NCBI GenBank assembly: GCA_037439425.1
Contig: JBBIWA010000014.1
Location: 29,781-93,780 of the forward strand
Direction of reading: 5' to 3'
Origin: Acidobacteriota bacterium
GTDB lineage: Bacteria > Acidobacteriota > Blastocatellia > RBC074
Length of the DNA stretch: 64,000 nucleotides
How positions within the stretch are numbered: the first letter of the stretch is position 1; every line of letters begins with the position of its first letter. The notes beneath the pieces are model-generated. The model saw only the letters and a program-made list of their open reading frames with translations, had not been told where the DNA came from and searched no databases. Of this stretch, positions 47,455-63,830 are shown piece after piece. A program made the translations under genes and the position numbers.

Positions 47455-48894
47455 ATGCAGACGAAACATTTTCACCTCATTGGGGTATGCGGCACAGCAA
47501 TGGCTTCGCTCGCGGGCTTGCTCAAGGCTCAAGGCCATCGCGTCACCGGTTCGGACAAAGCTTTTTACCCGCCGATGTCTGACGAGCTGCGGCGACTCGG
47601 CATTGAGACTTACGATAGTTTTGATCCCGCGCACCTGCAACCGCCGCCGGATGTAGTGGTGATTGGCAATGCGACCTCGCGCGGCAATCCTGAGATCGAA
47701 TATGTGTTGAATGCCAAACTGCGTTACGCATCGATGCCTGAAGTGATTCGTGAGCATTTCATTCGCGGACGTCACTCGGTTGTCGTTGCGGGCACGCACG
47801 GCAAGACGACGACCACTTCACTGTTAGCCTGGGTGATGGAGTTGGGGGGGCTGGATCCTACTTTTCTCCTTGGAGGTGTGGCGGAGAATTTTGGCGCAAG
47901 CTTCAAGCTGGGCTCGTCTGATTACTTCTTGATCGAAGGAGATGAATACGATACGGCTTACTTCGACAAGGGCGCGAAATTCATGCACTATTTGCCCGAC
48001 ACGGTAGTACTCAACAACATCGAGTACGATCATGCCGACATCTATCCAGACCTTGAAGCGGTCAAGAAGGCATTTCGGTTGCTGGTCAATCTAATCCCTT
48101 CCAACGGCTGCTTGGTGGCAGGTTGGGATTCCCCCTTGGTGCGCGAGATCATCACGCAGGTAGTGGCTCCCCAAGGCGTTTGGTGTCGGGTCGAGAGCTT
48201 TGGCATTGACAGCGAAGCTAAATGGACGGCGCGAGAGATAGACTTTTCACCTGCTGAGACTCGCTTTACAGTCTTTTGCGAAAACAAGGAGCTAGCCCGG
48301 TTCTGCACCCCGCTGGCGGGCTATTTCAATGTGCGTAACTGTTTGGGAGCTATTGTGGCGGCCGAGTGGCTGGGCATCGACCGGAAGGCGGTGGCCGAAG
48401 CGCTAGCGACCTTCAAGAGCGTCAAGCGGCGGATGCAGGTGCGCGGCGTCGTAGATGGTGTCACGGTGATTGACGACTTTGCGCATCATCCAACGGCCGT
48501 GCGCGAAACTCTACAAGCGGTTGCACAAAAGTACCCGCAACGTCGCATCGTCGCCATCTTTGAGCCGCGCTCGTGGACTTCGCGCAAGAAGGTCTTCCAG
48601 CAGCAGTATGCGCAAGCCTTCTCATCTGCGAGCGAAGTTGTGATTGCCCCTCTCTTTGAATCTTTCCGTTTAGCCGCTGACGATCAATTATCGGTTGAGG
48701 AGTTGGTGGCCGCCTTAGCTGCGCAAGGAAAGGTCGCTGCCTCAATTGAAGGGGCCGAGGCGATCGTGGCATATCTTGCACCGCGCTTGCGGTCTGGCGA
48801 TGTAGTGGTCATTATGTCTAATGGAGGTTTTGGAGGGATTCATCAGAAGATGCTCGAGGCTCTTGAATCGCGTAGCCGCGGTTCGGTCGCTTGA
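47455..48894 (+). CDS. mpl: UDP-N-acetylmuramate:L-alanyl-gamma-D-glutamyl-meso-diaminopimelate ligase (murein peptide ligase)
   Basis: The Mur-ligase N-terminus HFHLIGVCGTAMASLA...YPPMS...GNATSRGNPE...VAGTHGKTTT matches the Mpl pattern as recalled from E. coli Mpl, rather than MurC. Length 479 aa. Confidence 0.75.
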   Translation: MQTKHFHLIGVCGTAMASLAGLLKAQGHRVTGSDKAFYPPMSDELRRLGIETYDSFDPAHLQPPPDVVVIGNATSRGNPEIEYVLNAKLRYASMPEVIREHFIRGRHSVVVAGTHGKTTTTSLLAWVMELGGLDPTFLLGGVAENFGASFKLGSSDYFLIEGDEYDTAYFDKGAKFMHYLPDTVVLNNIEYDHADIYPDLEAVKKAFRLLVNLIPSNGCLVAGWDSPLVREIITQVVAPQGVWCRVESFGIDSEAKWTAREIDFSPAETRFTVFCENKELARFCTPLAGYFNVRNCLGAIVAAEWLGIDRKAVAEALATFKSVKRRMQVRGVVDGVTVIDDFAHHPTAVRETLQAVAQKYPQRRIVAIFEPRSWTSRKKVFQQQYAQAFSSASEVVIAPLFESFRLAADDQLSVEELVAALAAQGKVAASIEGAEAIVAYLAPRLRSGDVVVIMSNGGFGGIHQKMLEALESRSRGSVA

Positions 48895-48941
48895 TTCAGT
48901 GCATCAGGAGAAGCAGATCCATTTTGATCGGGAGGGGAAAG

Positions 48942-49406
48942 ATGCGACTAGTGTCTAGAGGTAGCGTTTTAATCTTCTTGGCGCTGGCAGTTTGCCAAGT
49001 GAGCCTGGCAAAGGGCCAGACTCAGAATGCTTCAGGAAAAGAACAAGATCAGCCCTACGTGGTCGAATACTATTACAAAGCGCGCTGGGGCTACGCCGAT
49101 GAATTTATTCGACTCTTTAAGAAGAATCACTTTCCTGTGCTCAAGAAACAGATCGAAACCGGGCGCATTCTTCAGGTGAGCGCTGTGCGCCCGCGCTATC
49201 ACGCCACGGAAGATGGGCGTTGGGATTACAAGGTGACGATTGTCTTTAAAAACCTCGCGGCCGCTCACGATTCGAGCCAGGAAGAAGCCATCATCAAACA
49301 ACTCTTTCCGGATCAGGAGACATTCCGCCGCGAAGAGCAGCGGCGCTTCGAGATCTTGCTGGCGCACTGGGACGTGCCGGTCGTCAGTGTCGTCCTAGAT
49401 CAGTAG
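48942..49406 (+). CDS. Secreted hypothetical protein (about 155 aa)
   Basis: Signal peptide MRLVSRGSVLIFLALAVCQVSLA after a GGGAGGGGAAAG RBS. An AT-rich terminator-like tract follows. Confidence 0.55.
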   Translation: MRLVSRGSVLIFLALAVCQVSLAKGQTQNASGKEQDQPYVVEYYYKARWGYADEFIRLFKKNHFPVLKKQIETGRILQVSAVRPRYHATEDGRWDYKVTIVFKNLAAAHDSSQEEAIIKQLFPDQETFRREEQRRFEILLAHWDVPVVSVVLDQ

Positions 49407-50235
49407 CGCGGCCAGATTAACGGCCAGATTAAGGCTTCTGTTAAAAAATAAGTTGATGCTCTGTAGCACAAAGTGCAGCTTTTCGGCTTTTTTCAAACCT
49501 GCGTTAGAAAATGGATCAATTTATTTTTTAACGAAGCCTAAATGACGCGCCAGCGATGACACAGGGGAGAGTTTGCCCGCTTGAGCAGCGCTCCGAAAAT
49601 TTTTTGGCTAGGAGCGAAAAAAAGACTTCCCCACAACCCCCCTTCTGACTATAATAGCCCCATCGTAATCACTGGGGTTTGCTTTTCAAAGTTTGATGCG
49701 GCGACCTACCGCGCTGCGTCAAAACCACGAGAGGAGTCCTGCGTAGTACGCACAAGTTTTTTGAGCGAATTGAGACCTGAGAGCTAGAGGGCGAGCGAGT
49801 TTGATTCTTGTTCGTTACGTGTGGCTTGGCAACGTGACCTCACAGCCTGTGTCTGAAGAAGACGGATTCTAGCGTTTCTCGGTGAAGTTATGACGGGAAC
49901 GGTTGACGCTCATCTCGCCAAAGATTTCCGGCAGAATTTTGGCACCCATCTGGCTGCGTCAACTCCGTCCACCCGGAGTTGGCGATAACGTGTAAAAAAT
50001 TTAATCCGGTAGGAGATAGACCTGATTTCGTGAGAGACGAGGACTCTCGTTCGTGCTGACGACTGCACGAAGGTGCGGGCTTCAGTATCGGGGCTCTCTT
50101 TCTTCGTTGGGGGACCGCTCACTCCGCCAGGATATGGGTCTGGTACTGGAAGCTTGGTCCCGAGAGCTTCAGCTCATGTGCTTGGGCTACTTACCAGCTA
50201 GCATCCTTAAGTTTGTAGGCTAAGATGTCAGGAAG

Positions 50236-51435
50236 GTGATCATGAAAGCCCCCACAACAATGTCGTGGAACTCTTACCTGAAAAAGAATGACGCCCTGGG
50301 ACTGTGGAACTCCCTCTACCGCCTGGTCTCAGTCCATCCTCTGGTTCGCTCCACGCTCCGCGCTCAGAACGGAGCGACGCATCCCACGCTACTGTTTTCG
50401 GTACGCGATCTCACCCAGGACCTGTTTGTGCTCCTGCTTGAGAAGGGACGCTTCGAGCATTACCTGAGAGCTCAGATGAGTGATGCGGAGATTGAGCGCG
50501 AGATCTTCCAGATCGAGCTGACCAACATGTTGATCGGGCGACTGAGGCGGCGGCGACCAGAAAATTACCGCATTGTGCGACGGGTGAGCAAAGTACTGGA
50601 AAGCAGCGGGCGATTCCGGGTGTTCAACCATAACGGTAAAAACACCCCGGCGCGCTATCATCAATCGGCTGGGACTATCTTCGGCTTGCGCGAATGGAGT
50701 GACGATAAGCCGATCAAGGATGGCGGCACCTTCGCCGAATTGATCGAGCAAGTCCCTATGCGCCAGCGCAATCGCCGCCGGGTCGGCTGCCGGGGCGAGG
50801 CGCAACTGATCATCACCAATCAAGAGCTGAGTGACTTGATGGAAGAGATTTTGCGCGCGATTGATTCGCCGGCTCCGCTCCGCTTGCTGCGCTCGCTGGC
50901 GCTGTCGAAACTGCCTGTCTATGACGCCGTCCTCAGCTCGCTGGAGGATGAGGTGGATGAAGAACGGCAGGGTCACTCACGCCACCAGATGATAGCTTCT
51001 ACCGAAGCCAGTCCGGAACAGATAGCGCTGCGCCACGAACAGGAAGAGCTGGCACGGCGGGCTGCAACGGAGTTTCTCGACCACATTCACCGCATGACGC
51101 GTGCACACCCGCAGCGCACCGAGCGTTTCTGGCGTGTGCTCTGGCACTGCTACTTTGATCCGGCCGAACCGTCGCAACTTTCCATTGCCGAGATGGTGGG
51201 CATTTCTGATTCCTCGGTGAGCGACTATCGCCGCAAGCTCGAAGACGAGTTGCGCAAACTGAGACTCGCTCCTGAGGAGCTGCGGTTCTTTGCCGAAGAG
51301 CTGGACGAGCAGTTGCGGCTGCGTCTGGATACACTTGAACCGCCCAGGCAGCGGGCCGACTGGCCAGCTACCACCGACTGGCCACGCTACAGCTACGATT
51401 CCCTGGTGCAGCTTGAAGGCATCCCTGTGGTTTGA
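50236..51435 (+). CDS. Hypothetical protein (399 aa) with sigma-70 region-2-like and region-4-like (HTH) segments. Candidate divergent sigma/regulatory factor heading the EPS locus.
   Basis: [20 protein letters not shown]...[17 protein letters not shown] resembles the ECF sigma region 2. The C-terminal [32 protein letters not shown] resembles a region 4 HTH. A long Arg/Glu-rich linker lies between them. The assignment is an inference. Confidence 0.55.
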
Positions 51436-51746
51436 AGCTCAGAAGCAGCCCCCGAGACTATCAAGTGCCCCCTTCCTTGCCCACCTGCCTGCTGAAGTTT
51501 GTTCTTGTCTAATCTTCCCAGCGAAGCTATGATCTAGTAGCCCGTAACGCCCTGTGCTCAAACTGAGAAGAGCCAAACTGAGAAGAGATGGTTAACAAGG
51601 CTGATTTCAATGGCGTAATTACACGCCCTGGATTATGATGCGCATTCCCTTCTTCCCCGAAGACAGAATTGGGTAATCCAATCTTCGTTGGCGCGATGGG
51701 TGTGGTGAGCTTGAGCACCTGGTAATGAGCGCTATGAGGAGAGAGT

Positions 51747-52643
51747 GTGAAACGGAATCAGAGCGAGCCACCTCAGGAGCTAGTCAACGCACTGACGGTA
51801 GATGTCGAAGACTATTTTCAGGTCGAGGCTTTTGCCGATGTGGTGCGCCGTGAAGACTGGCCTCACTGGGAGTCTCGGATCGAACGCAATACTCATTTGA
51901 TTCTTGACCTGTTGGCGCGCTACGCTGTGCATGGCACCTTCTTTATCCTGGGCTGGATTGCCGAGCATCATCCTCACCTGGTGCGTGAAATCGCAGCGGC
52001 CGGGCATGAGGTGGCCTCCCACGGATATGAGCATAGGCTGATTTATCGGCAGAGGCCGGATCAGTTTCGCTCTGATGTGCAGCGCGCCAGAAAGATTCTA
52101 GAGGATCTGATTGGCGCGCGGGTAGAAGGCTATCGCGCTCCAAGTTATTCGATCACAAGGGAGAGCTTATGGGCACTTGATATCTTGATCGAGGAAGGGT
52201 TTAGCTACGATTCCTCGATCTTCCCGGTGCACCACGACCGCTATGGGATCCCTAAGGCCAAGCGGTTTTTACACACCATCAGCCGTCCGGCCGGAGAGAT
52301 TCTGGAATTTCCGCCCTCGACTTTGAGGTTGCTGGGAATCAATTTCCCGATAGCAGGAGGCGGCTACTTTCGTCTTTTGCCTTATTGGCTCTTTCGCTGG
52401 GGGCTGAGCTACATCAATCGTCACGAGCAGCAGCCTGTGGTCTTCTTTGTGCATCCCTGGGAGTTGGACCCCGCCCAGCCTATGATCCCAGGCAAGCGCT
52501 TCAATGTCTGGCGCCACCGACTTCATCTGGGGCGGACCGAGGATCGGTTGAAGCAACTGCTAGCGCATTTCCGCTTTGCGCCGGTCCGCCAACTGATGCG
52601 GCTGGCAGTGGGGCCCAGCTGTGTGAGGCAAGCTACGATTTGA
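51747..52643 (+). CDS. Polysaccharide deacetylase, PEP-CTERM/XrtA-locus subfamily (with DUF3473-like C-terminus)
   Basis: [19 protein letters not shown]-terminus and the His-containing NodB-type motifs (ASHGYEH, HPWE). Confidence 0.8.
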
Positions 52644-52677
52644 GCTCCGGTCAGGCTCTCTCTTCGCGAGCCTCTCG

Positions 52678-53826
52678 TTGAGGCTGGTTGCAAGCAACCT
52701 GCCCTGGCCTTTTCCAGGCCTTAGGATTTTGAGAATTTTGGAAACGGTTATCTCATCAGTGACGGCAACCGCGCAGACAGCCACGACAATCAAGCACTAC
52801 ACTTCGGCGCGCGCCGCCGAGTGGGATGCTTACGTGCGCCGCGCCGCGCTAGGGACCTTCTGCCACCTGACCGGTTGGGGCAGTGTCATTGAGCGCACTT
52901 GGGGGCATCGGCCGTATTATCTTTATGCTGAGCGCGATGGCGCAGTTGTGGGCGTGCTACCACTATTTTACGTTCGCAGCCGGTTATTCGATACCGTCCT
53001 GGTCTCAACTCCCAATGCAGTTTATGGTGGAGCGATAGCCGATGATTGGCCGACTCGGCAGGCGCTCACTGAGGCGGCCAAACAGTTGGCCAGGCAATTG
53101 CATGTTGATTATCTGGAACTGCGTGACTGTTGGGAGACAGAGGCCGGAGTGGCGGATCCGGAGTTGCAGCGCAAAGACCTCTACGTCAGCTTCGAGTATC
53201 CGATCAGCACTGACGAAGACGCGCTGATGCGCAGCTTTCCCCGCGATATTCGCCGCATGATCCGCCAGGGGCCAAAACATGGACTGATCTCCGAAATAGG
53301 AGGGGAAGAATTGCTCGACGACTTCTATGAGGTCTATGCCACCAGCGTGCGTAATCTGGGCACGCCGGTCTTTCCGAAAAAGCTCTTCGCTGAGTTTCTG
53401 CGGCAGTTCCCCGAGGCCAGTGACATACTGCTCTTGCGCCAGGGCAGGCAAGTAGCCGGTGCAGTAATGAGCTTCTACTTTCGGGACACCGTGATGCCTT
53501 ACTATGCGGGCGCCTATCGCGACTTCTACGGCGCGGGCGTGAACAACTTTATGTACTGGGAATTGATGCGCCGGGCAGCGAGGCGCGGCTACAGGCGCTT
53601 CGACTTTGGCCGCAGCAAACGCGGCACCGGGGCCTACGAGTTCAAACGTGGGTGGGGCATGCAGGAGCGCCTATTGCCTTATCGGTATTTTTTGGTGCGT
53701 GCCCGTCAATTGCCCAATCTGAATCCGACCAATCCGAAGTTCGAGCTGCTGATCAAGGTGTGGCAAAGACTGCCTGTTAGAGTGACTAAACTGATCGGGC
53801 CCAAAATTGTAAGTAAGTTACCCTGA
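52678..53826 (+). CDS. FemAB-like (GNAT-fold) protein, PEP-CTERM/exosortase-system-associated family
   Basis: Similarity pattern to FemAB-related EPS proteins (YYLYAERDGAVVGVLPLFYVRSR..., MYWELMRRAARRGYRRFDFGRS). The exact start is uncertain; a GTG at 52756 is an alternative. Confidence 0.7.
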   Translation: MRLVASNLPWPFPGLRILRILETVISSVTATAQTATTIKHYTSARAAEWDAYVRRAALGTFCHLTGWGSVIERTWGHRPYYLYAERDGAVVGVLPLFYVRSRLFDTVLVSTPNAVYGGAIADDWPTRQALTEAAKQLARQLHVDYLELRDCWETEAGVADPELQRKDLYVSFEYPISTDEDALMRSFPRDIRRMIRQGPKHGLISEIGGEELLDDFYEVYATSVRNLGTPVFPKKLFAEFLRQFPEASDILLLRQGRQVAGAVMSFYFRDTVMPYYAGAYRDFYGAGVNNFMYWELMRRAARRGYRRFDFGRSKRGTGAYEFKRGWGMQERLLPYRYFLVRARQLPNLNPTNPKFELLIKVWQRLPVRVTKLIGPKIVSKLP

Positions 53827-53885
53827 GCCAGTTGTCGGCAGGCAGGAGCTTCTCCTGACTACTGACGGCTGACGGCTGATCACTA

Positions 53886-55178
53886 ATGAAGATCCTCTTT
53901 TTGGCACATCGCATCCCATATCCGCCCAACAAGGGCGACAAGATGCGCTCTTTTCATGAGCTGCACGCCTTGATCGCCCGAGGGCATAAGGTGCATCTGC
54001 TAGCCTTTGCCGATGAAACAAAGGATTTGCAATATCAGGCCCAGCTCTCTGCGCTGTGCGCTTCGGCTGTCATCGTGCCTCTCAATCGGCGCTGGGCACA
54101 GCTGCAAGCTGCCAAGAAGCTTTCAAGCCGCACGCCGCTTTCGGTGGGCTATTTTGCTTCGCCCCGCATGCGCCGTCTGGTGGCGCATAAACTCACCAGG
54201 CTGAATCCGGAAGCGATTTTTGTCTTCTCTTCCACCATGGCGCAATACGTGCTGCCACAGTTTGCCTCGCGCACAGTAGTGGATCTGGTTGATGTTGATT
54301 CGGAGAAGTGGCGTGACTACGCTTGGCACACCAGTTGGCCCCGGTCCTGGCTCTATCAGCTTGAGTGGCGACGGCTGCGGCGTTATGAACACGCCATCGT
54401 CAGGCAATTTGCTCAGACCATAGTTACCACTGAGCGGGAGGCGGCACTGCTGGATGAGCTTGATGAATTCACGCGACGGGCACGGCTGCGGGTGATCACT
54501 AACGGCGTGGATCTAGAGCATTATCGCCCCTTCGGAGCGGAGCTGCTTGAAGAGTTGCCGGTAGAAGAGCAAAAGTATTTCACCAATTCAGCTGCGATTC
54601 GGCTGGTCTTTACGGGCGCGATGGATTACTACGCCAATGTCGAAGGCGTCCGTTACTTTGTCGATCAAGTGTTGCCGTTCATCCGCGAGCGCGAGCCAGG
54701 CGTCGAGTTTCTGATTGTGGGCCGCAATCCGAGCTCTGAGGTCAGACGCCTAGGCGAACGCGACGGAGTCACAGTTACCGGTGAGGTCCGGGATGTGCGC
54801 CCTTACCTGACAGCGGCCACAGCCTGTGTGGTGCCGCTGCGGATTGCGCGTGGAGTGCAGAATAAAGTGCTGGAAGCGATGGCTTGCGGCCGCGCAGTCA
54901 TTGCTCTGCCAGAGGCGGTTGGCGGACTGAGGGTGGTTGCGGGCAAGCACTTGCTGGTAGCGCGCGATGCGCAGACAATGGCAGAGGCAGTGTTGAAGGT
55001 GCTTGCAGATGAAAGCTTGCGCGCGCAGCTTGGCCTTCAGGCCCGGCGTTTTGTCGAGGTCGAGCACGATTGGGCTCCGTTGCTGGAAAGGGTGGTTGAC
55101 TTGATCGAGTCGGTTGGCTCGCGCGCCATCTTGGCGCGGCAGCCTCGAGAGCAGAATGAAGTGGTAAATTGGAAATAA
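53886..55178 (+). CDS. Sugar transferase, PEP-CTERM/EpsH1-system-associated (stp1-like GT4)
   Basis: MKILFLAHRIPYPPNKGDKMRSFHEL is the hallmark N-terminus of this family. The C-terminal GT4 catalytic domain has the E..ACG motif. Confidence 0.8.
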   Translation: MKILFLAHRIPYPPNKGDKMRSFHELHALIARGHKVHLLAFADETKDLQYQAQLSALCASAVIVPLNRRWAQLQAAKKLSSRTPLSVGYFASPRMRRLVAHKLTRLNPEAIFVFSSTMAQYVLPQFASRTVVDLVDVDSEKWRDYAWHTSWPRSWLYQLEWRRLRRYEHAIVRQFAQTIVTTEREAALLDELDEFTRRARLRVITNGVDLEHYRPFGAELLEELPVEEQKYFTNSAAIRLVFTGAMDYYANVEGVRYFVDQVLPFIREREPGVEFLIVGRNPSSEVRRLGERDGVTVTGEVRDVRPYLTAATACVVPLRIARGVQNKVLEAMACGRAVIALPEAVGGLRVVAGKHLLVARDAQTMAEAVLKVLADESLRAQLGLQARRFVEVEHDWAPLLERVVDLIESVGSRAILARQPREQNEVVNWK

Positions 55179-55214
55179 GCGCTGGACCGTGGGAAGCAGT
55201 TTGTCCAGCCGAGG

Positions 55215-56315
55215 ATGAACATGGTGAAGGTTCTGAATGTGGTTGGGGCTCGCCCGAATTTCATGAAGGTGGCACCGATTGTCGCCGCCATCCAACGGCG
55301 CAGAGGCGAAATTTCGCAGGTGCTGGTTCACACCGGACAGCACTACGATGAAGCGCTGTCGGCTTCCTTCTTCCACGATCTCGGCATGCCAGCGCCGGAG
55401 ATCAACCTGGGAGTTGGATCAGGCACTCACGCCGAGCAGACGGCGCGCGTGATGCTGGCCTTCGAACCAGTCCTGGTCGCGCAGCAACCGGATTGGGTGG
55501 TGGTTGTCGGGGATGTCAATTCGACGATGGCTTGCGCCCTGGTGGCCAGCAAACTGTGCGTTCGCGTGGCTCACGTGGAGGCGGGATTGCGGAGCTTCGA
55601 TCGCACGATGCCGGAAGAGATCAACCGGATTGTGACCGATTGTATCGCTGATTTGTTATTGACTCCGAGCGCTGATGCCGATGCCAACTTGCGTCGGGAA
55701 GGCATCAGCGACGACAAAATCGTGCGCGTTGGTAATGTGATGATTGACACTCTGCTGACGCAACTGGACCGAGCAAGCCAATCACGTGTGCTTGAAGAAT
55801 TGGAGCTGGTACCGCGCGAGTTTATTGCCTTGACAATGCACCGGCCAACGAATGTAGATAATCCGGAAGCGCTAGATCGGATCTTCAGCGCGCTGAGCGA
55901 AATCGCGCGCCGGTTACCAATTATCTTCCCAGCCCATCCGCGCACTCAGGCGCGCCTGCGTGAGTTCAAGATCAAGGTGCCACCTGGCGTCCGTGTGCTA
56001 AAGCCAATGGGTTACCTTGATTTCCTGCGGTTGTGGAGTAACGCGCGGCTGGTAATGACCGATTCCGGCGGATTGCAGGAGGAGACTACAGCGCTGGGCA
56101 TCCCGTGCCTGACGCTGCGCGAAAACACTGAGCGGCCGATCACCATTGAGCAGGGGACCAATCGCCTGGTAGGGCGCGATCCGGAGCGCATCAAAGCTGC
56201 CGTTTTTGAAATCCTCGACCACGGCCATCAGCGCACCGCCCGTGTGCCAGAGTTGTGGGATGGTCGCGCGGCCGAGCGGATCGTCGAAGCACTGCTTGCT
56301 CACACTAGAAGTTGA
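55215..56315 (+). CDS. wecB: UDP-N-acetylglucosamine 2-epimerase (non-hydrolysing)
   Basis: KVLNVVGARPNFMKVAPI...VHTGQHYD...DSGGLQEE are diagnostic WecB/MnaA blocks. Confidence 0.9.
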   Translation: MNMVKVLNVVGARPNFMKVAPIVAAIQRRRGEISQVLVHTGQHYDEALSASFFHDLGMPAPEINLGVGSGTHAEQTARVMLAFEPVLVAQQPDWVVVVGDVNSTMACALVASKLCVRVAHVEAGLRSFDRTMPEEINRIVTDCIADLLLTPSADADANLRREGISDDKIVRVGNVMIDTLLTQLDRASQSRVLEELELVPREFIALTMHRPTNVDNPEALDRIFSALSEIARRLPIIFPAHPRTQARLREFKIKVPPGVRVLKPMGYLDFLRLWSNARLVMTDSGGLQEETTALGIPCLTLRENTERPITIEQGTNRLVGRDPERIKAAVFEILDHGHQRTARVPELWDGRAAERIVEALLAHTRS

Positions 56316-56359
56316 AAGCCGGAAGGAGCAGTTTTCGCTCTTCGCCCTCTTCCTGATGC

Positions 56360-57589
56360 ATGATGAGAGTACTCCACGTCCTAGATCACTCACTACCTTA
56401 CCTCAGCGGTTACAGCTTCCGCAGCAGCTACCTTATCAATATGCAGCGGCGGCTGGGGTTGCACCCGTGGGTGGTGACCTCGCCCAAGCATGAAGAGTTT
56501 AGTGAGCCATGCGAGAAGCTGAATGAGGTGGATTATTATCGGCTCAAATGGCCCTCCTTTTATTTTCTGCCTGCGCCGCGCCTGATTCCGCTGCTCAAGC
56601 AAGCTGCCTGTCTCGCCGCGCTGACGAAGCAAGTCACCAGACTGGCGCGAGAATTGAAAGTTGATCTAATTCATGCCCACTCGCCTTCACTCAATGGTCT
56701 GGCGGCCAGTCGCGCGGCGCAGCGCCTGGGATTGCCTTGGATTTATGAGCTGCGCTATTACGAGGAGGATGCAGCAGTTGACCGGGGGAAGACGAAATAT
56801 CAGTCGCTTCGTTATCGTCTGGCACAGCAGCTCGAACAAGAAGCGCTCAAGCGCGCGGACCTGGTGGTCACTATCGCTTCGCAGTTGCGGGCTGATTTGA
56901 TGGCGCGTGGCATACCGGCGCAGAAGGTCTTTGAAGTGCCGAACGGGGTTGACACTCAGCTCTTCAAGCCGCGTCCACCCGATCCTGAACTGATCGCGCA
57001 CCACCATCTGGCAGGCAAAACCGTAGTCGGCTTCATCGGCTCCTTCTACGCCTATGAGGGTCTGTCCTGCCTGGTGGAGGCGATGCTTTTCCTGTTGCGC
57101 GATCGTGATGATCTGAAGTTGTTGCTGGTGGGAGAAGGAGAGACGGAAGCGCAATTGCGCGAGCAGATCCCCAAGCATTTAAGCTCGCATTTCGTTTTCG
57201 CCGGGAAGATCAAGCATGAGCAGGTGCTACGTTATTACTCGGTCATGGACATGCTCGTCTATCCACGCCTCAGCTCGCGCTTGACGGAGCTGACCACGCC
57301 GCTCAAGCCGCTAGAGGCGATGGCAATGGAACGCGCCGTGATTGGCAGCGATGTTGGCGGACTGCGCGATCAGGTGGTGCATAACGAGACCGGCCTTCTA
57401 TTTGAAGCCAACAATAGCACGGCGCTCGCCGCCTGCATTTCGCGCCTAGCTAGCAACCCGGCCGAGCGACGCGCCTTCGGGCGGCGAGCGCGCGAAATGG
57501 TGGTGCGGACGCGCGATTGGGAACGCATCACTGAGCGTTACCTGGAAATCTATGGTCAGTTAGGTGTGCGCCAGCGCGTGGCCGCCTAA
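56360..57589 (+). CDS. Glycosyltransferase family 4, exosortase-A (XrtA)-system-associated type
   Basis: MMRVLHVLDHSLPYLSGYSFRS N-terminus typical of this EPS GT family. GT4 C-terminal EGLSCLVEAMA.. motif. Confidence 0.8.
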   Translation: MMRVLHVLDHSLPYLSGYSFRSSYLINMQRRLGLHPWVVTSPKHEEFSEPCEKLNEVDYYRLKWPSFYFLPAPRLIPLLKQAACLAALTKQVTRLARELKVDLIHAHSPSLNGLAASRAAQRLGLPWIYELRYYEEDAAVDRGKTKYQSLRYRLAQQLEQEALKRADLVVTIASQLRADLMARGIPAQKVFEVPNGVDTQLFKPRPPDPELIAHHHLAGKTVVGFIGSFYAYEGLSCLVEAMLFLLRDRDDLKLLLVGEGETEAQLREQIPKHLSSHFVFAGKIKHEQVLRYYSVMDMLVYPRLSSRLTELTTPLKPLEAMAMERAVIGSDVGGLRDQVVHNETGLLFEANNSTALAACISRLASNPAERRAFGRRAREMVVRTRDWERITERYLEIYGQLGVRQRVAA

Positions 57590-57623
57590 GAGGTGAGCAG
57601 TAGTTTGGAGTTAAGGGATAGTC

Positions 57624-58517
57624 ATGTCAGCAACTTTGGCCAGCAAAAAGGGGCTTGAAGCATCAAGCGAAAGACTCGACATCAAGACGCCTGAACCGAC
57701 GCTGAAGAATACGGTTGAGTGGAGCGATAGTCTGCTAGCGCACCTGCGCGAGCTGATCTCTCATCGCGAGCTGCTCTTTTTGGTGACCTATCGGGAGATC
57801 AAAGTGCGCTATAAACAGACTCTGCTCGGTGCGCTCTGGGCGATCCTCCAGCCGTTTTCGCTGATGCTGGTCTTCACGCTCTTCTTCTCGCTCTTTTACC
57901 AGATGCCAAGCGATGGCATCCCTTATCCGATTTTTGCCTATGCCGCGCTGCTGCCGTGGACGTTCTTTGCAACGGCGCTTTCGTTTGCCGTGCCGAGTCT
58001 GATCACGAACTCCTACATCATCACGAAGATCTACTTTCCGCGAGAGATAGTTCCTCTCTCTTCGGTGCTTGCTGCGCTGGTTGATTTCGGCTTTGCTGCG
58101 CTCGTTTTCGTCGCCATGTTGGCTTATTATCGGATTGCGCCGACCTGGAATGTGCTTTACGTCGTGCCCCTGTTGGCAGTGCAATTGATCTTCACGACGG
58201 GGTTGTGTCTGCTGCTATCGGCCTTCACGGTGCTTTACCGTGATGTGCGCTTTACGATCCCACTGCTGATTCAAATCTGGATGTTTTCCACCCCCATTCT
58301 TTACCCGGTCTCCATCGTGCCGGACTCGCTGCGGGTCTTCTACATGACGCTCAATCCGATGGCTGTGGTGATTGATGGCTACCGGCGCGCACTCGTGCAG
58401 GGACAAGCGCCAGAGCTGCTCTACCTGGCCAACACCGCCGTGGTCTCAGTAGCGTTGCTGTGGCTGTCCTACAAATATTTCAAGCATCTAGAACGAGAAT
58501 TCGCCGATATCGTCTGA
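57624..58517 (+). CDS. ABC-2 type polysaccharide exporter permease (Wzm/KpsM/TagG-like)
   Basis: Six TM helices and an ABC-2 membrane signature. Immediately upstream of the cognate ATPase. Confidence 0.8.
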
Positions 58518-58576
58518 AATGGCCCGTCGTCGGTTGCCAGTTGCAACTTGACTATGCTGGCCACTAACCACCGGTT

Positions 58577-59857
58577 ATGAAGATCATCACCATGGAAAAC
58601 CTGTCGAAGCGTTACCGGCTGAGCCGTCTCGGTTCCAAATCCATCCGAGAAGAGTTAGCGCGAGTGGGGAAGCGCTTGCTGCGGCGCTCGCCTCATCAAG
58701 GGGAAGCCAGCGAGGATGAATTTTATGCGTTGCGCAATATCAGCCTGGAGGTCGAACAGGGGGAGACCATCGGTTTTATCGGCCCGAACGGATCGGGCAA
58801 AAGCACCGTTTTGAAACTGCTGGCGCGCATCATCTATCCGACCAGCGGCAAACTCGCCGTCCACGGATCGGTCGCTTCGCTGATCGAAGTTGGCGCAGGT
58901 TTTCACCCGGAGTTGACCGGACGCGAAAACCTCTATCTTTACGGTTCGATTATGGGCATGCGGCGCAGCGAGGTGCGAGAGAAATTCGATCGCATTGTGG
59001 ATTTCGCCGAGCTGCATCAATTCATTGATACCCCGGTCAAGCGTTACTCATCGGGGATGTATGTACGCTTGGGCTTTGCCGTAGCAGCGCACATCAATCC
59101 CCATCTGCTTCTGGTTGACGAGGTGCTGGCGGTGGGGGATGCGGCCTTTCAGAGCAAATGCCAGCAACGAATAGAAGAGTTGCGCCGCAATGGGATGACG
59201 ATCGTCTTCGTCTCGCATGATATGGCCGCCGTCGAGCGATTGTGCAATCGCGCTTTCTTTCTCTATCGAGGGGAGATTCGTTCCGAAGGCGAGCCGCAAA
59301 AAGTCATTAGCGATTACTATGGTACGGTGCTCTTTAAAAAGCCAGTGCAGAATGATGGTCCACCGGTTGAGCTGGCTGAATCCGCATCCGGGCGCGAGGC
59401 CGAAATCCTCGGCGTTCGCTTCTTCAATCGAGATGAGCAAGCAGTTGAGACTATCTCGACAGGTGAACCGCTGATTGCACGCATCGAATATCATGCCTAT
59501 CGCGCCATCGAAGACCCCGTCTTTGAGCTGCTCTTTTATTCCGCCGATGATCATTTGCACTGCCAGTACACGACGGCGCTGACCGGGGAGCGCATCCCAC
59601 TGCTGCAAGGGCGCGGAGTGGTCGAAATCGTGTGTGAAGAGTTCGGGCTGACGCCAGGGATCTTCAAAATTGACGCCCTTCTTGCGCGCCGTGGCGCGCT
59701 GGCCCCCTATGACTGGAAGCCACGCCAGTACTTGCTCAAAGTGCTGCCTGGCAAGCGAGTGCGTGGTATGTTTTATTCTCCTCATTACTGGCGGCTCATG
59801 CCAGCCGACGAAGCGCGGTTGGAGAGCGGCCCGAGAGAAGAAGTCCTTTATCTCTGA
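58577..59857 (+). CDS. ABC polysaccharide exporter ATP-binding protein (Wzt/TagH-like) with a C-terminal carbohydrate-binding extension
   Basis: Walker [13 protein letters not shown] signature [12 protein letters not shown], Walker [13 protein letters not shown] and an about 170-aa C-terminal extension as in Wzt. Confidence 0.85.
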
Positions 59858-59897
59858 AACTCGGCGCTGGCCGCCCCCTATCCCGCGTAGTTTGGTT

Positions 59898-60851
59898 ATG
59901 TCAAACAGTCCGGTAGTCAGCATTATCATCCCCGCCTACAATGTTGCCCCATACATCGGCGAAGCGCTCGCTTCAGTAGTGGCGCAAAGCTATACTGATT
60001 ACGAGGCGATTGTGATCAATGATGGTTCCACCGATGAGACCGAGCGCGCAGTGGAGCCGTTTCGTGATCGCATCATTTACCTTAAGCAGGAAAATCGCGG
60101 CTTGGCAGGAGCGCGCAATACAGGATTGCGCCACGCCCGTGGCCGCTACGTCGCTTTACTTGATGGTGATGACATCTGGATGCCGGATTATCTGGAGAAA
60201 CTGGTAGGGCGTTTACTCGCCGATTCGGGGATTGACCTTATCTATCCCAATGCGATCTATTTCGGCTCGCCGCGTTGGGAAGGACATCTGTTTCAGGATT
60301 TCTATCCTTCGCGCGAGCCAGTGACTTTCGAGAAGCTCTTGCAGCGAGAGTGCACAGTCTTTGGCTCTGCCGTGTTCAAGCGTGAGCTAGCCATTGAAGC
60401 CGGAATGTTCGACGAATCATTGCGCGAAGGCGGTGAGGACTTCGATCTATGGCTGCGTCTGGCGCAGAATGGCGCGCGCATCACTTTCACCACCGAACCG
60501 CTGGTGCGCTATCGCAAGCGCAGCGAGTCACTCTCCCATGACGGAACGCGCATGCCGCGCAGCCAGATCAGGATTTACGAGAAGGTTCTGGCCAATCCTA
60601 AAACGACGCAACAGCAAGCTGAACTGATTGCACCAGTGATGGCTGAAATGCGCGCCCAGCTCAATCGAGCTGTGGGCAAAGAATTGCTCGCTGCTGGAGA
60701 TTATGCCGGGGCGGCTCACCATTTTGCGCTCGCCAATGCGCATTTTCGCAGCCTGAAGCTGACGCTGGTGGCGGCCGGATTAAAGCTCGCCCCCAGCTTG
60801 GTGGCTGCAGCCTTCGCCAGACAGTCGGAATCAGACCGGAAGGAGCTCTAA
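59898..60851 (+). CDS. Glycosyltransferase family 2
   Basis: VSIIIPAYNVAPYIGEALASVVAQSY...VINDGSTDET...LLDGDD is the GT2 DxD-type N-domain. The start is at the internal ATG 59898 of the 59670 ORF. Confidence 0.8.
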   Translation: MSNSPVVSIIIPAYNVAPYIGEALASVVAQSYTDYEAIVINDGSTDETERAVEPFRDRIIYLKQENRGLAGARNTGLRHARGRYVALLDGDDIWMPDYLEKLVGRLLADSGIDLIYPNAIYFGSPRWEGHLFQDFYPSREPVTFEKLLQRECTVFGSAVFKRELAIEAGMFDESLREGGEDFDLWLRLAQNGARITFTTEPLVRYRKRSESLSHDGTRMPRSQIRIYEKVLANPKTTQQQAELIAPVMAEMRAQLNRAVGKELLAAGDYAGAAHHFALANAHFRSLKLTLVAAGLKLAPSLVAAAFARQSESDRKEL

Positions 60852-60899
60852 GATCACCACCCACTGCAAGCGGGAAGCGACAGGGAAGAGAATCCACTG

Positions 60900-61643
60900 A
60901 TGGAGCCGCGGTATCAGAGAGAGCGTGACTTTCATAATCAAACCTTCAGCGCCGGTGGGCGAGAAGAAGCAGGCAAATTTTATGCGATCGTGCACCGCAG
61001 TTGGGCTTGTTACGAAGAGCTGCTGCGCGCTCACGGCGCGCACCGGCGCGTCCTGGAGTACGGCTGCGGGCCTGGAAGCAACGCTTTTTCGCTGGCCTAC
61101 CACGGTGCGATCGTCACCGGCATTGATATCTCGGAGGTGGCAATTGAACAGGCTCGGCAGCGCGCCGAGCGCGAGCAGCTCAATAGCGTCAGCTTTCAGG
61201 TAATGAATGCTGAAGCGCTGGAGTTCCCCGATCACTCATTCGATGTCGTCTGCGGCCGCGCGATTATGCATCACCTAGATTTGACCAGAGCCTTCGCCGA
61301 GCTGGCGCGCGTGCTCAAACCAGATGGCGTGGCGATCTTTATCGAACCGCTAGGACACAATCCGCTGATCAATCTCTACCGTCGCCTCACTCCGCAGATG
61401 CGCACTCCGGATGAACACCCCTTGCTTATGTCTGATCTGGAGATGGCACGCCATTACTTCGGCAAGATCGAAATGCGTTTCTTCCATCTCCAGTCGCTGC
61501 TTGCCGTTCCGTTCCGCAATCGGCCAGGGTTTGAAAGCTTGCTAAAACTGCTCGATGCTGCTGATCAGGCTTTGTTCAAGCTGATGCCATTTGCCAGACG
61601 CTATGCCTGGACAGTGGTGCTGACTCTGTCGCAGCCGAAATGA
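60900..61643 (+). CDS. Class I SAM-dependent methyltransferase
   Basis: VLEYGCGPGSNAF (motif I G-x-G-x-G), DVVCGRAIMHHL and LKPDGVAIF. Confidence 0.75.
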   Translation: MEPRYQRERDFHNQTFSAGGREEAGKFYAIVHRSWACYEELLRAHGAHRRVLEYGCGPGSNAFSLAYHGAIVTGIDISEVAIEQARQRAEREQLNSVSFQVMNAEALEFPDHSFDVVCGRAIMHHLDLTRAFAELARVLKPDGVAIFIEPLGHNPLINLYRRLTPQMRTPDEHPLLMSDLEMARHYFGKIEMRFFHLQSLLAVPFRNRPGFESLLKLLDAADQALFKLMPFARRYAWTVVLTLSQPK

Positions 61644-61837
61644 AGCGGAGAGCAAAAGCATCTGCTTCAGGCCCCTTTCGCCCGGGAAGGAAGCAACATG
61701 CAAGAGAAAAATCCTTTATGGATGTTGCGTGGAAGTAATCAGGCATATTGCGATGGGTTGTTCTCTGTTCCACAATGTAGCTTACCTGATCGCGCGAGGC
61801 CCCGAAGAAATGCGATTGCGCAGAAAAGGAGGCGACC

Positions 61838-62638
61838 ATGCCATCACCATTTCCTGGAATGGATCCTTATCTCGAAGGCGAAATGTGGCAGGAATTCCAC
61901 GAGACGCTGGCAAGCACCATCCGCGCTCAACTGATGCCGCTTTTGGCGCCGAAGTATGTGGCCTTGCTAGCCAAGCGCTATGCGCTGGATCGAGCCGACA
62001 TTGGGATCATCGGACTGCCCGCTGAACGGGTGCTCTATCCCGATGTGGACGTGGTTGCACCGCCGAGCCGAGCGGCTGCTTCGCTCTCCAGCAGTGCCAG
62101 TGTGGCAGTGGCCGAGCCAGCAGTGGAACTGGTCAGCCCGATGAGCGAGGAAGTGCCACTGCTGAGCGTGGAGATTCGAGATGTGGCGAATCGGCGTCTG
62201 GTCACCTTGATTGAGATTCTCTCGCCGATCAACAAACGAGGTGAAGAGTGGCGCGAATATCTGAATCGGCGCGAGGAGATACTGCAAACCAAGACCCATC
62301 TGCTGGAGATAGACTTGTTGCTCCAGGGGCTGCGCTTGCCGCTGCTTGGGGAGTTACCGCCAGCGGCCTACTATATCTTTCTCAGTCGCTGGCAGCGGCG
62401 GCCCTGGACTCAGGTCTGGCAGATTTCGTTACGTCAGGCGTTGCCTGCGGTGCCGGTTCCCTTGTTGCCGCCGGACCCGGATGTGCCCCTGGATTTACAG
62501 GCAGCGGTCAAGGCTTGTTTTGAGCTCGTGGGGTATGAGCGTTTGTTAGATTATTCAGTGCCGCCGCCACCACCAGCCTTGAGCCAGGAGGATGCGGCTT
62601 GGGTAGCAGAGTGTTTGCGCGCCGCTGGGGTAGCGTGA
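61838..62638 (+). CDS. DUF4058 family protein
   Basis: The N-terminus MPSPFPGMDPYLEGEMWQEFHETL is the characteristic start of DUF4058 proteins. About 265 aa. Confidence 0.65.
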   Translation: MPSPFPGMDPYLEGEMWQEFHETLASTIRAQLMPLLAPKYVALLAKRYALDRADIGIIGLPAERVLYPDVDVVAPPSRAAASLSSSASVAVAEPAVELVSPMSEEVPLLSVEIRDVANRRLVTLIEILSPINKRGEEWREYLNRREEILQTKTHLLEIDLLLQGLRLPLLGELPPAAYYIFLSRWQRRPWTQVWQISLRQALPAVPVPLLPPDPDVPLDLQAAVKACFELVGYERLLDYSVPPPPPALSQEDAAWVAECLRAAGVA

Positions 62639-62678
62639 GGAGCTGTTTGCCCTTGATTTGACTACTAGCTGATCTCAG

Positions 62679-63830
62679 ATGGGTGAGAGAAAGGTCAAAA
62701 TTCTGCACGTGCTCGATTCACTCGGTGTTGGTGGCACGGAGCGCATGCTGGTAGAAGTGATTAAGGGGCTTGATGAGAAGCGGTTTGAGCACGCTATCTG
62801 TTGTATCACGCGTTTAGGCGAGCTTGCTGGCCGGTTGCCAGAGGGCGTGAAATGCTACGATATGGGCAAGGGCGCCAGGCGCGATTTCTTGATGCCTGTC
62901 AAGCTGGCGCAGCTAATGCACCGCCTGCGTCCAGACATCGTTCACACGCGGAACTGGGCTGGAATTGATGGGGCGCTGGCTTGTTTACTTGAGCGCAGTC
63001 CCCGCCTGGTTCACAGCGAGCACGGGCGCGATCTACCTTACATTCATTTTGAGCCGGCCAGGCGCAAAATGATTCGTCGCCTCGTCTATCATCTGGCCGA
63101 TGCCGTCTTCAGCGTTTCTGGTGAGCTGCGCGACTATTACTGCCGCGAGACAGGCTTTGCTCCCGAACGCATGCGCGTGATCCCGAACGGTGTAGATGTT
63201 AGGCGCTTTAATGCCGCCGATGGGCATGGCGCGCGTCAAGAGCTGGGCATAGAGGTTGATGATTTTGTCATCGGCGTGGTAGCTCGGCTCAGCGCGACCA
63301 AAGACCTGTTGACGCTGGCGCGGGCCTTCGCGCGCCTCTACCGCGCTCAGCGCGAGCCGCGCCTCAAATTGCTCATTGTTGGCGATGGCGAAGCTCGCGC
63401 TGAACTAGAAAATTTTGCTGTTGAGCAGGGGCTGACTTGTGCCATCATTCTGGCTGGCGCGCGCGAGGATGTGCCGCGACTGCTGCGCGCGATGGATGTA
63501 TTTGCGCTCCCTTCGCTTTCGGAAGGAATGCCGGGCGCGATACTTGAGGCGATGGCCGCATCCTTGCCAGTAGTTGCCACCAAGGTGGGCGCAACTCCAG
63601 AGTTGGTGACTGATGGCGAAACAGGCTTTCTGGTAGCACCACGCGCAGACGAAGAGATGGCTGAACGACTCTCGCTGTTGCTGGCCGATCGTGAGCTGGC
63701 GCGGAAGTTAGGCGCTGCCGGGCGGCAGTTGGTGCAGCGCGACTATAGTCTTGAGGTGATGTTGCAGCGATACGAGGAACTTTACCTCTCATCGGTTAGT
63801 CATGAGTTACAGCAGTTTTCACTTGCGTGA
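62679..63830 (+). CDS. Sugar transferase, PEP-CTERM/EpsH1-system-associated (stp2-like GT4)
   Basis: KILHVLDSLGVGGTERMLVEVIKGLDEKRFEHAICCI N-terminus typical of the stp2 family. GT4 C-terminus EGMPGAILEAMA. Confidence 0.8.
   Translation: MGERKVKILHVLDSLGVGGTERMLVEVIKGLDEKRFEHAICCITRLGELAGRLPEGVKCYDMGKGARRDFLMPVKLAQLMHRLRPDIVHTRNWAGIDGALACLLERSPRLVHSEHGRDLPYIHFEPARRKMIRRLVYHLADAVFSVSGELRDYYCRETGFAPERMRVIPNGVDVRRFNAADGHGARQELGIEVDDFVIGVVARLSATKDLLTLARAFARLYRAQREPRLKLLIVGDGEARAELENFAVEQGLTCAIILAGAREDVPRLLRAMDVFALPSLSEGMPGAILEAMAASLPVVATKVGATPELVTDGETGFLVAPRADEEMAERLSLLLADRELARKLGAAGRQLVQRDYSLEVMLQRYEELYLSSVSHELQQFSLA

Follow-up and report, generated by a model that had tools for sequence, protein, structure and literature searches.

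A divergent protein family with sigma-70-like segments adjoins polysaccharide loci of Acidobacteriota

Locus-specific regulators acting on polysaccharide operons behind long leaders include UpxY/UpxZ of Bacteroides and RfaH with its ops/JUMPStart element, and highly divergent sigma factors are known from phages, such as gp55 of T4 and gp28/gp34 of SPO1. For exopolysaccharide (EPS) systems of the XrtA/PEP-CTERM type, the sole described regulators are proteobacterial: the two-component pair PrsK/PrsR and the tetratricopeptide repeat (TPR) protein PrsT, which act on sigma-54 −24/−12 sites upstream of PEP-CTERM protein genes (PMC1569441, Haft et al, 2006). According to the same authors, regulators elsewhere remain to be found (PMC1569441). 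Sigma factors of the extracytoplasmic function (ECF) type, as currently classified, carry N- or C-terminal extensions and a short variable linker, and no ECF group with a conserved domain between the two sigma domains was found in these classifications (PMC7826278, PMC8999054). Few groups of soil bacteria are as abundant as the Acidobacteriota, whose exopolysaccharides influence soil aggregation and biofilms; EPS regulation in this phylum is essentially unknown, and a literature search found no paper joining PEP-CTERM, sigma factor and Acidobacteria. Here, a gene heading an EPS gene cluster in a 64,000-nt stretch of Acidobacteriota DNA (Blastocatellia; contig JBBIWA010000014.1 of assembly GCA_037439425.1, positions 29,781 to 93,780; hereafter the window) was analyzed computationally. 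According to the best-supported model, to which a probability of about one half is assigned, its product belongs to the sigma-70 family as a variant of new architecture and controls polysaccharide loci.

A small protein family with sigma-like domains beside polysaccharide genes

The gene had been annotated as encoding 399 aa. An open reading frame (ORF) of that length, starting with GTG, does exist at 50236-51435 of the forward strand; its start, however, is probably misplaced. Because the homologs begin with MKA and a Shine-Dalgarno sequence (GGAAGGTGA) lies just before the ATG at 50242, the true start is probably that ATG, which yields 397 aa, the same length as P0001, the window's own sequence (100% identity) among the homologs. 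The homolog search returned 223 clusters (at 90% identity), the top 120 of which match over their full length with 56-75% identity. All named homologs are hypothetical proteins from Blastocatellia or from metagenome-assembled genomes (MAGs) of Acidobacteriota, and none contains a Pfam domain. Each of 54 species-level genomes has one copy, and a search for two family copies on one contig found none. When 1.84 billion cluster representatives were searched with a family profile, just 213 proteins were retrieved at E ≤ 1e-3, among them full-length members down to 25% identity. Thus, the family is small and stays separate from the huge canonical sigma family.

The protein consists of two helical domains that flank a middle domain and an acidic linker (Table 1). 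In the AF2 model (pLDDT 73), both helical domains (aa 11-123 and 260-367) are confident, the middle part (aa 127-228) is mixed alpha/beta, and the linker (pLDDT 31-39; 16.7% E, 10% D) is disordered, its length and sequence varying in the alignments. Family motifs are DLTQ.LF..LL.K.RF..Y, IE.EI.QIEL.N and LR.R.PESYRLARRI, together with VLWHCYFDP...Q..IA..LG.SDSLVS.YR in the C-terminal part; the middle domain is marked by FR.F, YGL..W and R.RN.R..G..G..Q.IISN.EL..L..EI..A.DSP and contains a basic low-confidence loop at aa 179-190. About 170 aa separate the sigma2-like from the sigma4-like domain, and ∼55 conserved residues lie N-terminal to region 2. The first-pass annotation had taken the intervening stretch for an Arg/Glu-rich insert. 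Its composition (12.0% R, 10.2% E) shows no enrichment over the overall protein (12.0% and 9.3%), and because it is conserved, like the rest of the architecture, down to 25% identity, it is a domain, followed by a short linker, and not a spacer. The protein is not an ECF factor with a spacer; its conserved middle domain has an unassigned fold.

Similarity to sigma factors was found with two kinds of comparison. The sigma70-ECF model TIGR02937 matched the window protein at E 5.7e-5, aligning aa 56-341 with profile positions 28-163; it also matched all 38 close homologs (E 1e-5 to 1e-6; best 7e-6) and 22 of 36 diverse members (best E 2.9e-7), with region 2 preceding region 4 as it should. Further sub-threshold matches were scattered over SigF, SigE, SigK, FecI and Bacteroidetes-type ECF models, with almost nothing besides. 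The top matches of the predicted structure in Foldseek were mostly sigma factors in RNA polymerase complexes (E 0.015-1). The fold matches, each with its three comparison values in the order recorded, were SigG1 (7.6; 92; 11.9), the sigma4 domain of SigF (7.3; 57; 1.9; 35% identity), region 2 of sigmaE (7.0; 96; 3.8), FliA (6.9; 94; 4.8), SigW (6.6; 100; 4.1), the sigma2 domain of SigC (6.2; 78; 3.0), region 4 of sigmaE (6.2; 68; 2.9) and T4 gp55 (6.2; 105; 6.6). The resemblance of two segments to sigma-70 regions 2 and 4, proposed from the sequence alone, is therefore above chance and reproducible family-wide, and the fold matches agree with it. We conclude that the protein probably belongs to the sigma-70 superfamily, as a distant member of novel architecture.

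The strongest evidence for polysaccharide gene regulation is that each of three deeply diverged branches of the family lies beside a different polysaccharide locus. In the window's own branch, the XrtA-system deacetylase and FemAB genes are directly downstream in 38 of 60 ortholog loci, and seven further loci have EPS-type arrangements (PEP-CTERM-type glycosyltransferases [GTs] in L032 and L046; GT2 genes in L026, L028, L029 and L033; the deacetylase ∼3 kb downstream in L047), so that a total of ∼45 adjoin such genes. The remaining ∼15 have VIT/vWA-HtpX-TerC, MFS or other neighbors; in the protein tree, these loci group into a few discrete clades, a pattern that looks like lineage-specific rearrangement. 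The linkage of orthologs to EPS loci, proposed as a check in the first-pass annotation, is thus borne out for most loci and also for the distant subfamilies, whereas about a quarter of the orthologs are not adjacent to EPS genes. Upstream genes vary by clade, with a transketolase (TK)-GlpX-DUF2085-hypothetical order in many.

Two peculiarities of these loci may be recorded. In one clade (L015, L017:6612-9764, L019, L022:7451-9943, L023, L030 and L044), the next gene encodes a protein of 830-1050 aa and is followed by HtpX and TerC; this protein matches TIGR03788 ("marine proteobacterial sortase target") at or near the cutoff and has a TonB C-terminal domain in one case, an odd context for an acidobacterium. 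Moreover, contigs titled "uncultured Heliomicrobium sp." or "Heliobacteriaceae", which are Firmicutes names, carry Blastocatellia-type genes and synteny (L006, L007, L012, L013, L015, L017, L020, L022, L023, L027, L028, L049 and L051); the titles are probably a taxonomic mislabel.

The second branch, the P0132 subfamily (∼35% identity to the window protein; 80 metagenome loci), has Wzy-like, GT2, GT4, DUF218, or TPR plus Wzz genes directly downstream in 28 of 30 informative loci. As the gap to the downstream gene is just 80-120 nt, the sigma-like gene is probably co-transcribed with these polysaccharide genes. A conserved hairpin (AAGCGCAGG...CCTGC) was observed in the intergenic region between the sigma-like and the Wzy-like gene in L065-L139 (e.g., L109:7084-7180). 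Upstream and co-directional, 34 of 42 loci (among L061-L140) carry genes for an OmpR-type response regulator and a PAS histidine kinase (e.g., L109:3055-5032), which may constitute a second regulatory layer for the locus. The third branch is represented by P0142 (34% identity; Blastocatellia MAG), the gene of which is located between a divergent UGDH-GT2-Wzx operon and a sugar epimerase gene.

In the P0132 subfamily, the apparent gap of ∼960 bp between the kinase and the sigma-like gene holds a small divergent gene of 100-120 aa, the protein sequence of which is conserved in 68 of 80 loci (e.g., L109:5048-5356 [−] and L082:5151-5519 [−]; the other 66 are among L062-L140). The protein has no Pfam match and is easily missed in annotation. 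Its invariant C15, H40, C44 and C47 (C-x24-H-x3-C-x2-C) are spaced like the ligands in zinc-binding anti-sigma factors, and its C-terminal part carries the motif (E/Q)MP..LR.LAE..L. The best matches of its profile in the Protein Data Bank (PDB) were the anti-sigma factor DdvA (E 0.037) and ChrR; when 20 members were compared with NCBIfam, nine matched NF052375 "anti-sigma factor" (best E 1e-6), eight RsrA and five ChrR. This anti-sigma-like partner is an argument for a sigma function that does not depend on the sequence of the sigma-like protein itself.

Other divergent members lie on contigs that look phage-like (L142:2064-3107, L144:7001-8080 and L145:8001-9053). P0162 (29% identity) is encoded amid small unannotated co-directional ORFs including a Gp80 gene, P0276 (∼31% identity) amid dozens of small ORFs with HNH (HNH_3), YAcAr and DUF1064 genes, and a viral genome of IMG/VR (IMGVR_UViG_3300045996_000642, i.e., L145) has a member that shares 35% identity with the window protein across aa 11-365. 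No relatives were found in PHROGs or in 50,697 GenBank phage records. Divergent sigma factors are typical phage cargo, and the phage-like contigs, which suggest that some members are phage-borne, therefore fit the sigma reading.

Promoters, leader and the downstream operon

The operon behind the regulator gene encodes an XrtA-system deacetylase, a FemAB-family protein, an stp1 GT, a WecB epimerase, an stp3 GT, a Wzm/Wzt ABC exporter, a GT2, a methyltransferase, an unknown protein of 266 aa, and an stp2-like GT. Eleven co-directional genes were counted before the end of the window, one fewer than the 12 first reported. The identification as a PEP-CTERM EPS locus was correct: four NCBIfam families associated with XrtA/PEP-CTERM scored above cutoff, i.e., the deacetylase (TIGR03006; 384.6 versus 276.2 bits), FemAB (TIGR03019; 407.7 versus 260.4 bits), stp1 (TIGR03087; 444.2 versus 316.7 bits) and stp3 (TIGR04063; 446.7 versus 442.1 bits). 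WecB matches TIGR00236, and further genes gave Wzm/Wzt-like and GT2 matches; the exosortase XrtA itself was not seen within the window. The longest ORF of the GT2 gene (59670-60851, TTG start at 59670) overlaps the Wzt ATPase gene (58577-59857) by 188 nt; because the GT2 domain starts only at residue 77, the true start is probably further downstream.

The operon is preceded by a sigma-70-like promoter of its own, which a promoter scanner picked up in the window. The family consensus, derived from an anchored alignment, is CTTGA.T, a spacer of ∼18 nt, and GGCTATTAT (38 of 39 loci); GCTATTAT occurred with at most one mismatch in 38 of 39 intergenic regions, whereas shuffled sequences reached a count of 19 at most. 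Its distance to the deacetylase start is 77-534 nt in 37 of 38 loci and 5 nt in L027, and the 5′-UTR typically measures 170-210 nt. The flanks are conserved as well, far above the surrounding non-coding DNA. In 1.5 Mb, 62 matches to the motif were found, 38 of them at the pre-operon position. No such promoter follows the regulator gene in 20 of 22 loci lacking the deacetylase (the two exceptions carry PEP-CTERM GTs), from which it follows that the promoter belongs to the EPS operon; that it travels with the regulator gene was rejected, as it is missing where the EPS genes are missing. Its extended −10 element is similar to the one in the promoter of the regulator gene (G[A/G]CTATAAT). As a regulon-wide motif of the window, GRCTATNAT was discarded (four matches versus 1.8 expected, not significant).

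The regulator gene is preceded by a non-coding gap of 829 nt (49407-50235; GC 0.50 versus 0.59 in coding sequence). In close relatives, conservation rises sharply at 49590-49790, comprising a promoter and ∼100 nt of presumably transcribed sequence. The promoter block consists of a T-run and an A-run (UP-like), a weak −35 (TTCCCC at 49627-49632; TAGCCA in relatives), a 17-nt spacer, and the invariant extended −10 GACTATAAT at 49647-49655 (TATAAT at 49650-49655; CTATAAT is invariant across 16 sequences). As the −35 of the window fits just three of six positions, a consensus promoter scanner misses it. Exact-pattern searches found the block in close relatives only, and blastn of the leader against distant loci returned nothing, so that a nhmmer profile built from close relatives was required; with it, 50 of the 61 sequences searched proved to carry the block, namely the window and 49 of 60 Blastocatellia-type loci. 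In each case it is on the + strand, like the gene, and precedes the gene by 400-900 bp, irrespective of flanking genes. The −10 box is 474-594 nt away from the start codon (18 loci), and the P0132 subfamily has an analogous sigma-70-like promoter plus hairpin ∼430 nt before the start codon. We infer a long, regulated 5′ leader that extends from the predicted transcription start to the start codon. The alignment of the leaders of the window and L055 shows 1-nt indels and hairpins with compensatory changes. A small protein gene hidden in the leader, like that of the distant subfamily, was dismissed, since no ZAS-like or other conserved ORF was found and the indels are not multiples of three. The gene before the leader (48891-49406) encodes 171 aa with a signal-peptide-like N-terminus and without a family match (EthD, E 0.08); it is not kept beside orthologs, where other genes of ∼170-250 aa are found.

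Table 1. Positions of the features of the regulator gene, its leader and the downstream operon in the window.
Feature	Position	Strand	Remarks
Conserved promoter block	49590..49661	+	Alignment of close relatives, nhmmer profile
Inferred 5′ leader, ∼580 nt, non-coding	49662..50241	+	Predicted transcription start to start codon
Hairpin P1	49692..49723	+	10-12 bp stem, conserved loop CCUACC(A)
Hairpin P2 + U-tract	49740..49762	+	TGCGT-AGT-ACGCA, then CAAGTTTTTT; terminator scan
Sigma-like protein, coding sequence (probable start)	50242..51435	+	ATG at 50242, 397 aa
N-terminal helical domain, sigma region-2-like	50266..50604	+	aa 11-123; region 2.2-like and region 2.3/2.4-like motifs
Conserved middle domain, mixed alpha/beta	50605..50919	+	aa 124-228
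Acidic linker, variable, predicted disordered	50920..51009	+	aa 229-258
C-terminal helical domain	51010..51336	+	aa 259-367; region-4-like helix-turn-helix at aa ∼296-341
Sigma-70-like promoter of the EPS operon	51505..51533	+	TTGTCT, 17 nt, TATGAT; 213 nt upstream of deacetylase start
Eleven co-directional polysaccharide genes	51747..63830	+	NCBIfam matches; gaps 34-194 nt

Earlier, this leader had been described as unusually long, low in GC and rich in stem-loops. Length and GC content are real, while the overall folding energy is unremarkable (z −1.39), and the further real features are the conserved promoter, one covarying hairpin (P1) and one terminator-like hairpin (P2). The suggested Rfam scan, riboswitches included, matched no family: cmscan of 49300-51800 with E up to 5 returned only two chance matches to eukaryotic lncRNAs. 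By RNAalifold of 16 sequences, P1 has nine pairs, five of them with compensatory double changes, and it was also found in the single-sequence minimum free energy and centroid folds. Pairing of its loop CCUACC with GGUAGG at 50008-50013 was rejected, the partner being present in only three of ∼12 loci. P2, ∼100 nt past the −10 box, has the form of an intrinsic terminator or attenuator. A hairpin plus T-run occurs 86-107 nt past the −10 box in ∼15 of 50 loci belonging to three clades, with stems that differ by clade (TGCGT/ACGCA, GCGAA/TTCGC and GCGC/GCGC); it was not found in the remaining clades and is thus not universal. Attenuation is likely in the window's clade, as judged from this arrangement.

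The same elements could be read as a separate small RNA gene of ∼100 nt, formed by the promoter, P1 and P2, in which case the regulator would have an unrecognised proximal promoter of its own. The intrinsic-terminator form of P2 in those ∼15 loci would suit a small RNA, as would the conservation being densest in the first 100-180 nt. Still, most clades lack the terminator-like element and nevertheless keep the promoter and its 474-594 nt distance, the block is always on the strand of the gene and moves with it, no second conserved promoter nearer to the gene was seen in the alignment of close relatives, and the comparable promoter of the distant subfamily again lies ∼430 nt before the start. 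A separate small RNA is considered the less likely reading.

Weighing the sigma reading

Several results weigh against the protein being a sigma factor. The TIGR02937 score of the window protein misses the cutoff (22.8 versus 42.9 bits), and no cutoff of any curated sigma model was passed. Among 38 members, Pfam detected Sigma70_r4 in only two (E 0.04) and Sigma70_r2 in none. When compared by hhalign with a small ECF alignment, consisting of sigmaE (verified against 1or7), AlgU, SigW and one acidobacterial ECF factor, the family reached a probability of 17-18%, with region 4 alone covered, both profiles being low in diversity. In the DNA of the collected loci, only one ECF gene was found. Searching PDB sequences with the family profile gave nothing with alignment A1 and chance-level matches with A5, no sigma factor rising above chance; likewise, the search of 1.84 billion proteins did not retrieve the huge ECF family. 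In alignments read by eye, the tryptophan of the ECF region 2.3 motif WL..IA.N is not conserved. Both promoters of the window locus, that of the EPS operon and that of the gene itself (TAGCCA/TTCCCC, 17 nt, TATAAT), resemble housekeeping −35/−10 promoters and not those of ECF or other alternative sigma factors, and no distinct candidate target promoter for the sigma-like protein was found. No anti-sigma-like gene was detected near the window gene or in the Blastocatellia-type loci by tblastn, hidden Markov model (HMM) or motif scan. The orthologs without EPS neighbors point in the same direction. The check by HHpred-type comparison and structure proposed in the first-pass annotation thus gave a divided answer: the fold matches are dominated by sigma factors, the profile comparison was not decisive, and the curated cutoffs were missed. 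Formal membership of the ECF or group 3 sigma factors fails: the region between regions 2 and 4 holds no sigma3 domain, as group 3 would have; it spans ∼170 aa, whereas ECF factors consist of sigma2 and sigma4 with no more than a short variable linker in between; and neither the gene itself nor the EPS operon has the autoregulated promoter with GGAAC-like −35 and CGT-like −10 typical of ECF factors.

The main rival, a real though minority possibility, is an ordinary helix-turn-helix factor in the same biological role. Such an activator or repressor would not be an RNA polymerase subunit; its C-terminal helix-turn-helix would bind operators near the EPS promoter, and its N-terminal and middle domains would serve sensing or oligomerisation. 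The housekeeping-like promoters just described suit this rival, and the two-region TIGR02937 matches, the fold matches and the anti-sigma-like partner of the P0132 subfamily favor a sigma factor. The protein might instead mimic a sigma factor or modulate RNA polymerase or an anti-sigma factor, in the style of the sigma-like domain of PhyR, by titrating a partner (such as a ZAS-like protein or a regulator of the housekeeping sigma) without recognizing a promoter. This is very improbable, as the protein has no receiver or other signaling domain, DNA contact is suggested by its recognition-helix region SDS.VS.YR, which few other parts of the family match in conservation, and the subfamily of the window lacks an anti-sigma-like neighbor. 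Domestication of a factor from a phage or mobile element, with adjacency to EPS genes merely marking the boundary of a variable island, would account for the divergent members on phage-like contigs and in one IMG/VR viral genome, for a conserved housekeeping block (TK-GlpX-DUF2085) facing a variable downstream side, and for the several clades that keep the gene beside non-EPS neighbors. It is nonetheless improbable: the gene is single-copy, 56-75% identical and syntenic over 54 species genomes, three diverged subfamilies adjoining different polysaccharide loci are hard to explain by island boundaries alone, and no integrase or mobility genes were noted by the chromosomal copies, for which no systematic search was made.

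The reading of the protein as a new sigma-70 variant consequently remains preferred. The earlier proposal of a dedicated, undescribed EPS regulator is partly supported: it is strengthened by the sigma-like segments, the polysaccharide linkage and the anti-sigma-like gene of one subfamily, and weakened by the failed cutoffs, the sigma-70-like promoters, and the quarter of orthologs not adjacent to EPS genes. According to the preferred model, a very divergent sigma-70 member, composed of a sigma2-like domain, a family-specific domain of ∼105 aa, an acidic linker and a sigma4-like domain, would act in trans as a regulator dedicated to polysaccharide clusters; most likely, it would serve as an alternative sigma factor, binding RNA polymerase and steering it to one or few promoters. 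In the lineage of the window, the gene would be transcribed from its own conserved sigma-70-type promoter through the leader, the first 100 nt of which (P1, then the terminator-like P2) would probably control whether transcription reads through into the gene; regulator levels, and via them EPS synthesis, would thereby be set at the leader. In the distant branch, control would probably be exerted by the small zinc-binding anti-sigma-like protein encoded divergently upstream. A wider reading can be held only tentatively: the family would represent a new class of sigma-70 factors (sigma2, new domain, sigma4), present on chromosomes of Acidobacteriota and in uncultivated phages, locus-specific for polysaccharide, and controlled differently in each branch, by a ZAS-type anti-sigma factor or, in the branch of the window, by a new structured, attenuator-like leader RNA.

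Comparison with described systems

If the protein is a true sigma factor, the sigma-70 family would acquire an architecture in which regions 2 and 4 enclose a conserved domain and which is invisible to current classification pipelines; the EPS loci of Blastocatellia would gain a concrete, testable regulator, and a link would emerge between EPS regulators of cells and transcription factors encoded by phages. Owing to its covarying hairpin and its terminator-like element, the conserved leader is a candidate for a new cis-regulatory RNA.

Compared with group 4 (ECF; TIGR02937), to which sigmaE of E. coli and SigW of B. subtilis belong, the window protein stays below the curated cutoffs. Where ECF factors have a short variable linker, the family has a conserved domain plus linker, and it has conserved residues before region 2; the promoters associated with it are not ECF-like, and the anti-sigma-like gene of the P0132 subfamily is divergent and not co-transcribed. 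Group 3 factors (FliA/sigma28, SigF/SigB) share the three-part layout, in which a further domain separates region 2 from region 4, and FliA, SigF and SigB are among the fold and HMM matches of the window protein. Unlike the divergent sigma factors of phages, most family members are chromosomal, single-copy and linked to polysaccharide genes, and they match nothing in PHROGs or the GenBank phages.

With PrsK/PrsR/PrsT, the family shares regulation tied to XrtA/PEP-CTERM EPS systems; the promoters at the window locus, however, are of the −35/−10 and not of the −24/−12 type. That PrsK/PrsR and sigma-54 genes are missing from the window had been used as an argument for an alternative regulator. 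Indeed, a non-exhaustive scan of the window, covering 10 large ORFs, revealed neither two-component nor sigma-54 activator genes; the argument is weak, because that system is proteobacterial and acts on the PEP-CTERM protein genes. A parallel in organization is offered by UpxY/UpxZ and RfaH, in which the first gene of the locus or a long 5′ leader controls a long operon, and which, like the present family, are found with different types of polysaccharide loci. The family lacks NusG/KOW similarity, and no ops element was identified; the likeness to UpxY/UpxZ and RfaH would be one of genomic logic, not of homology.

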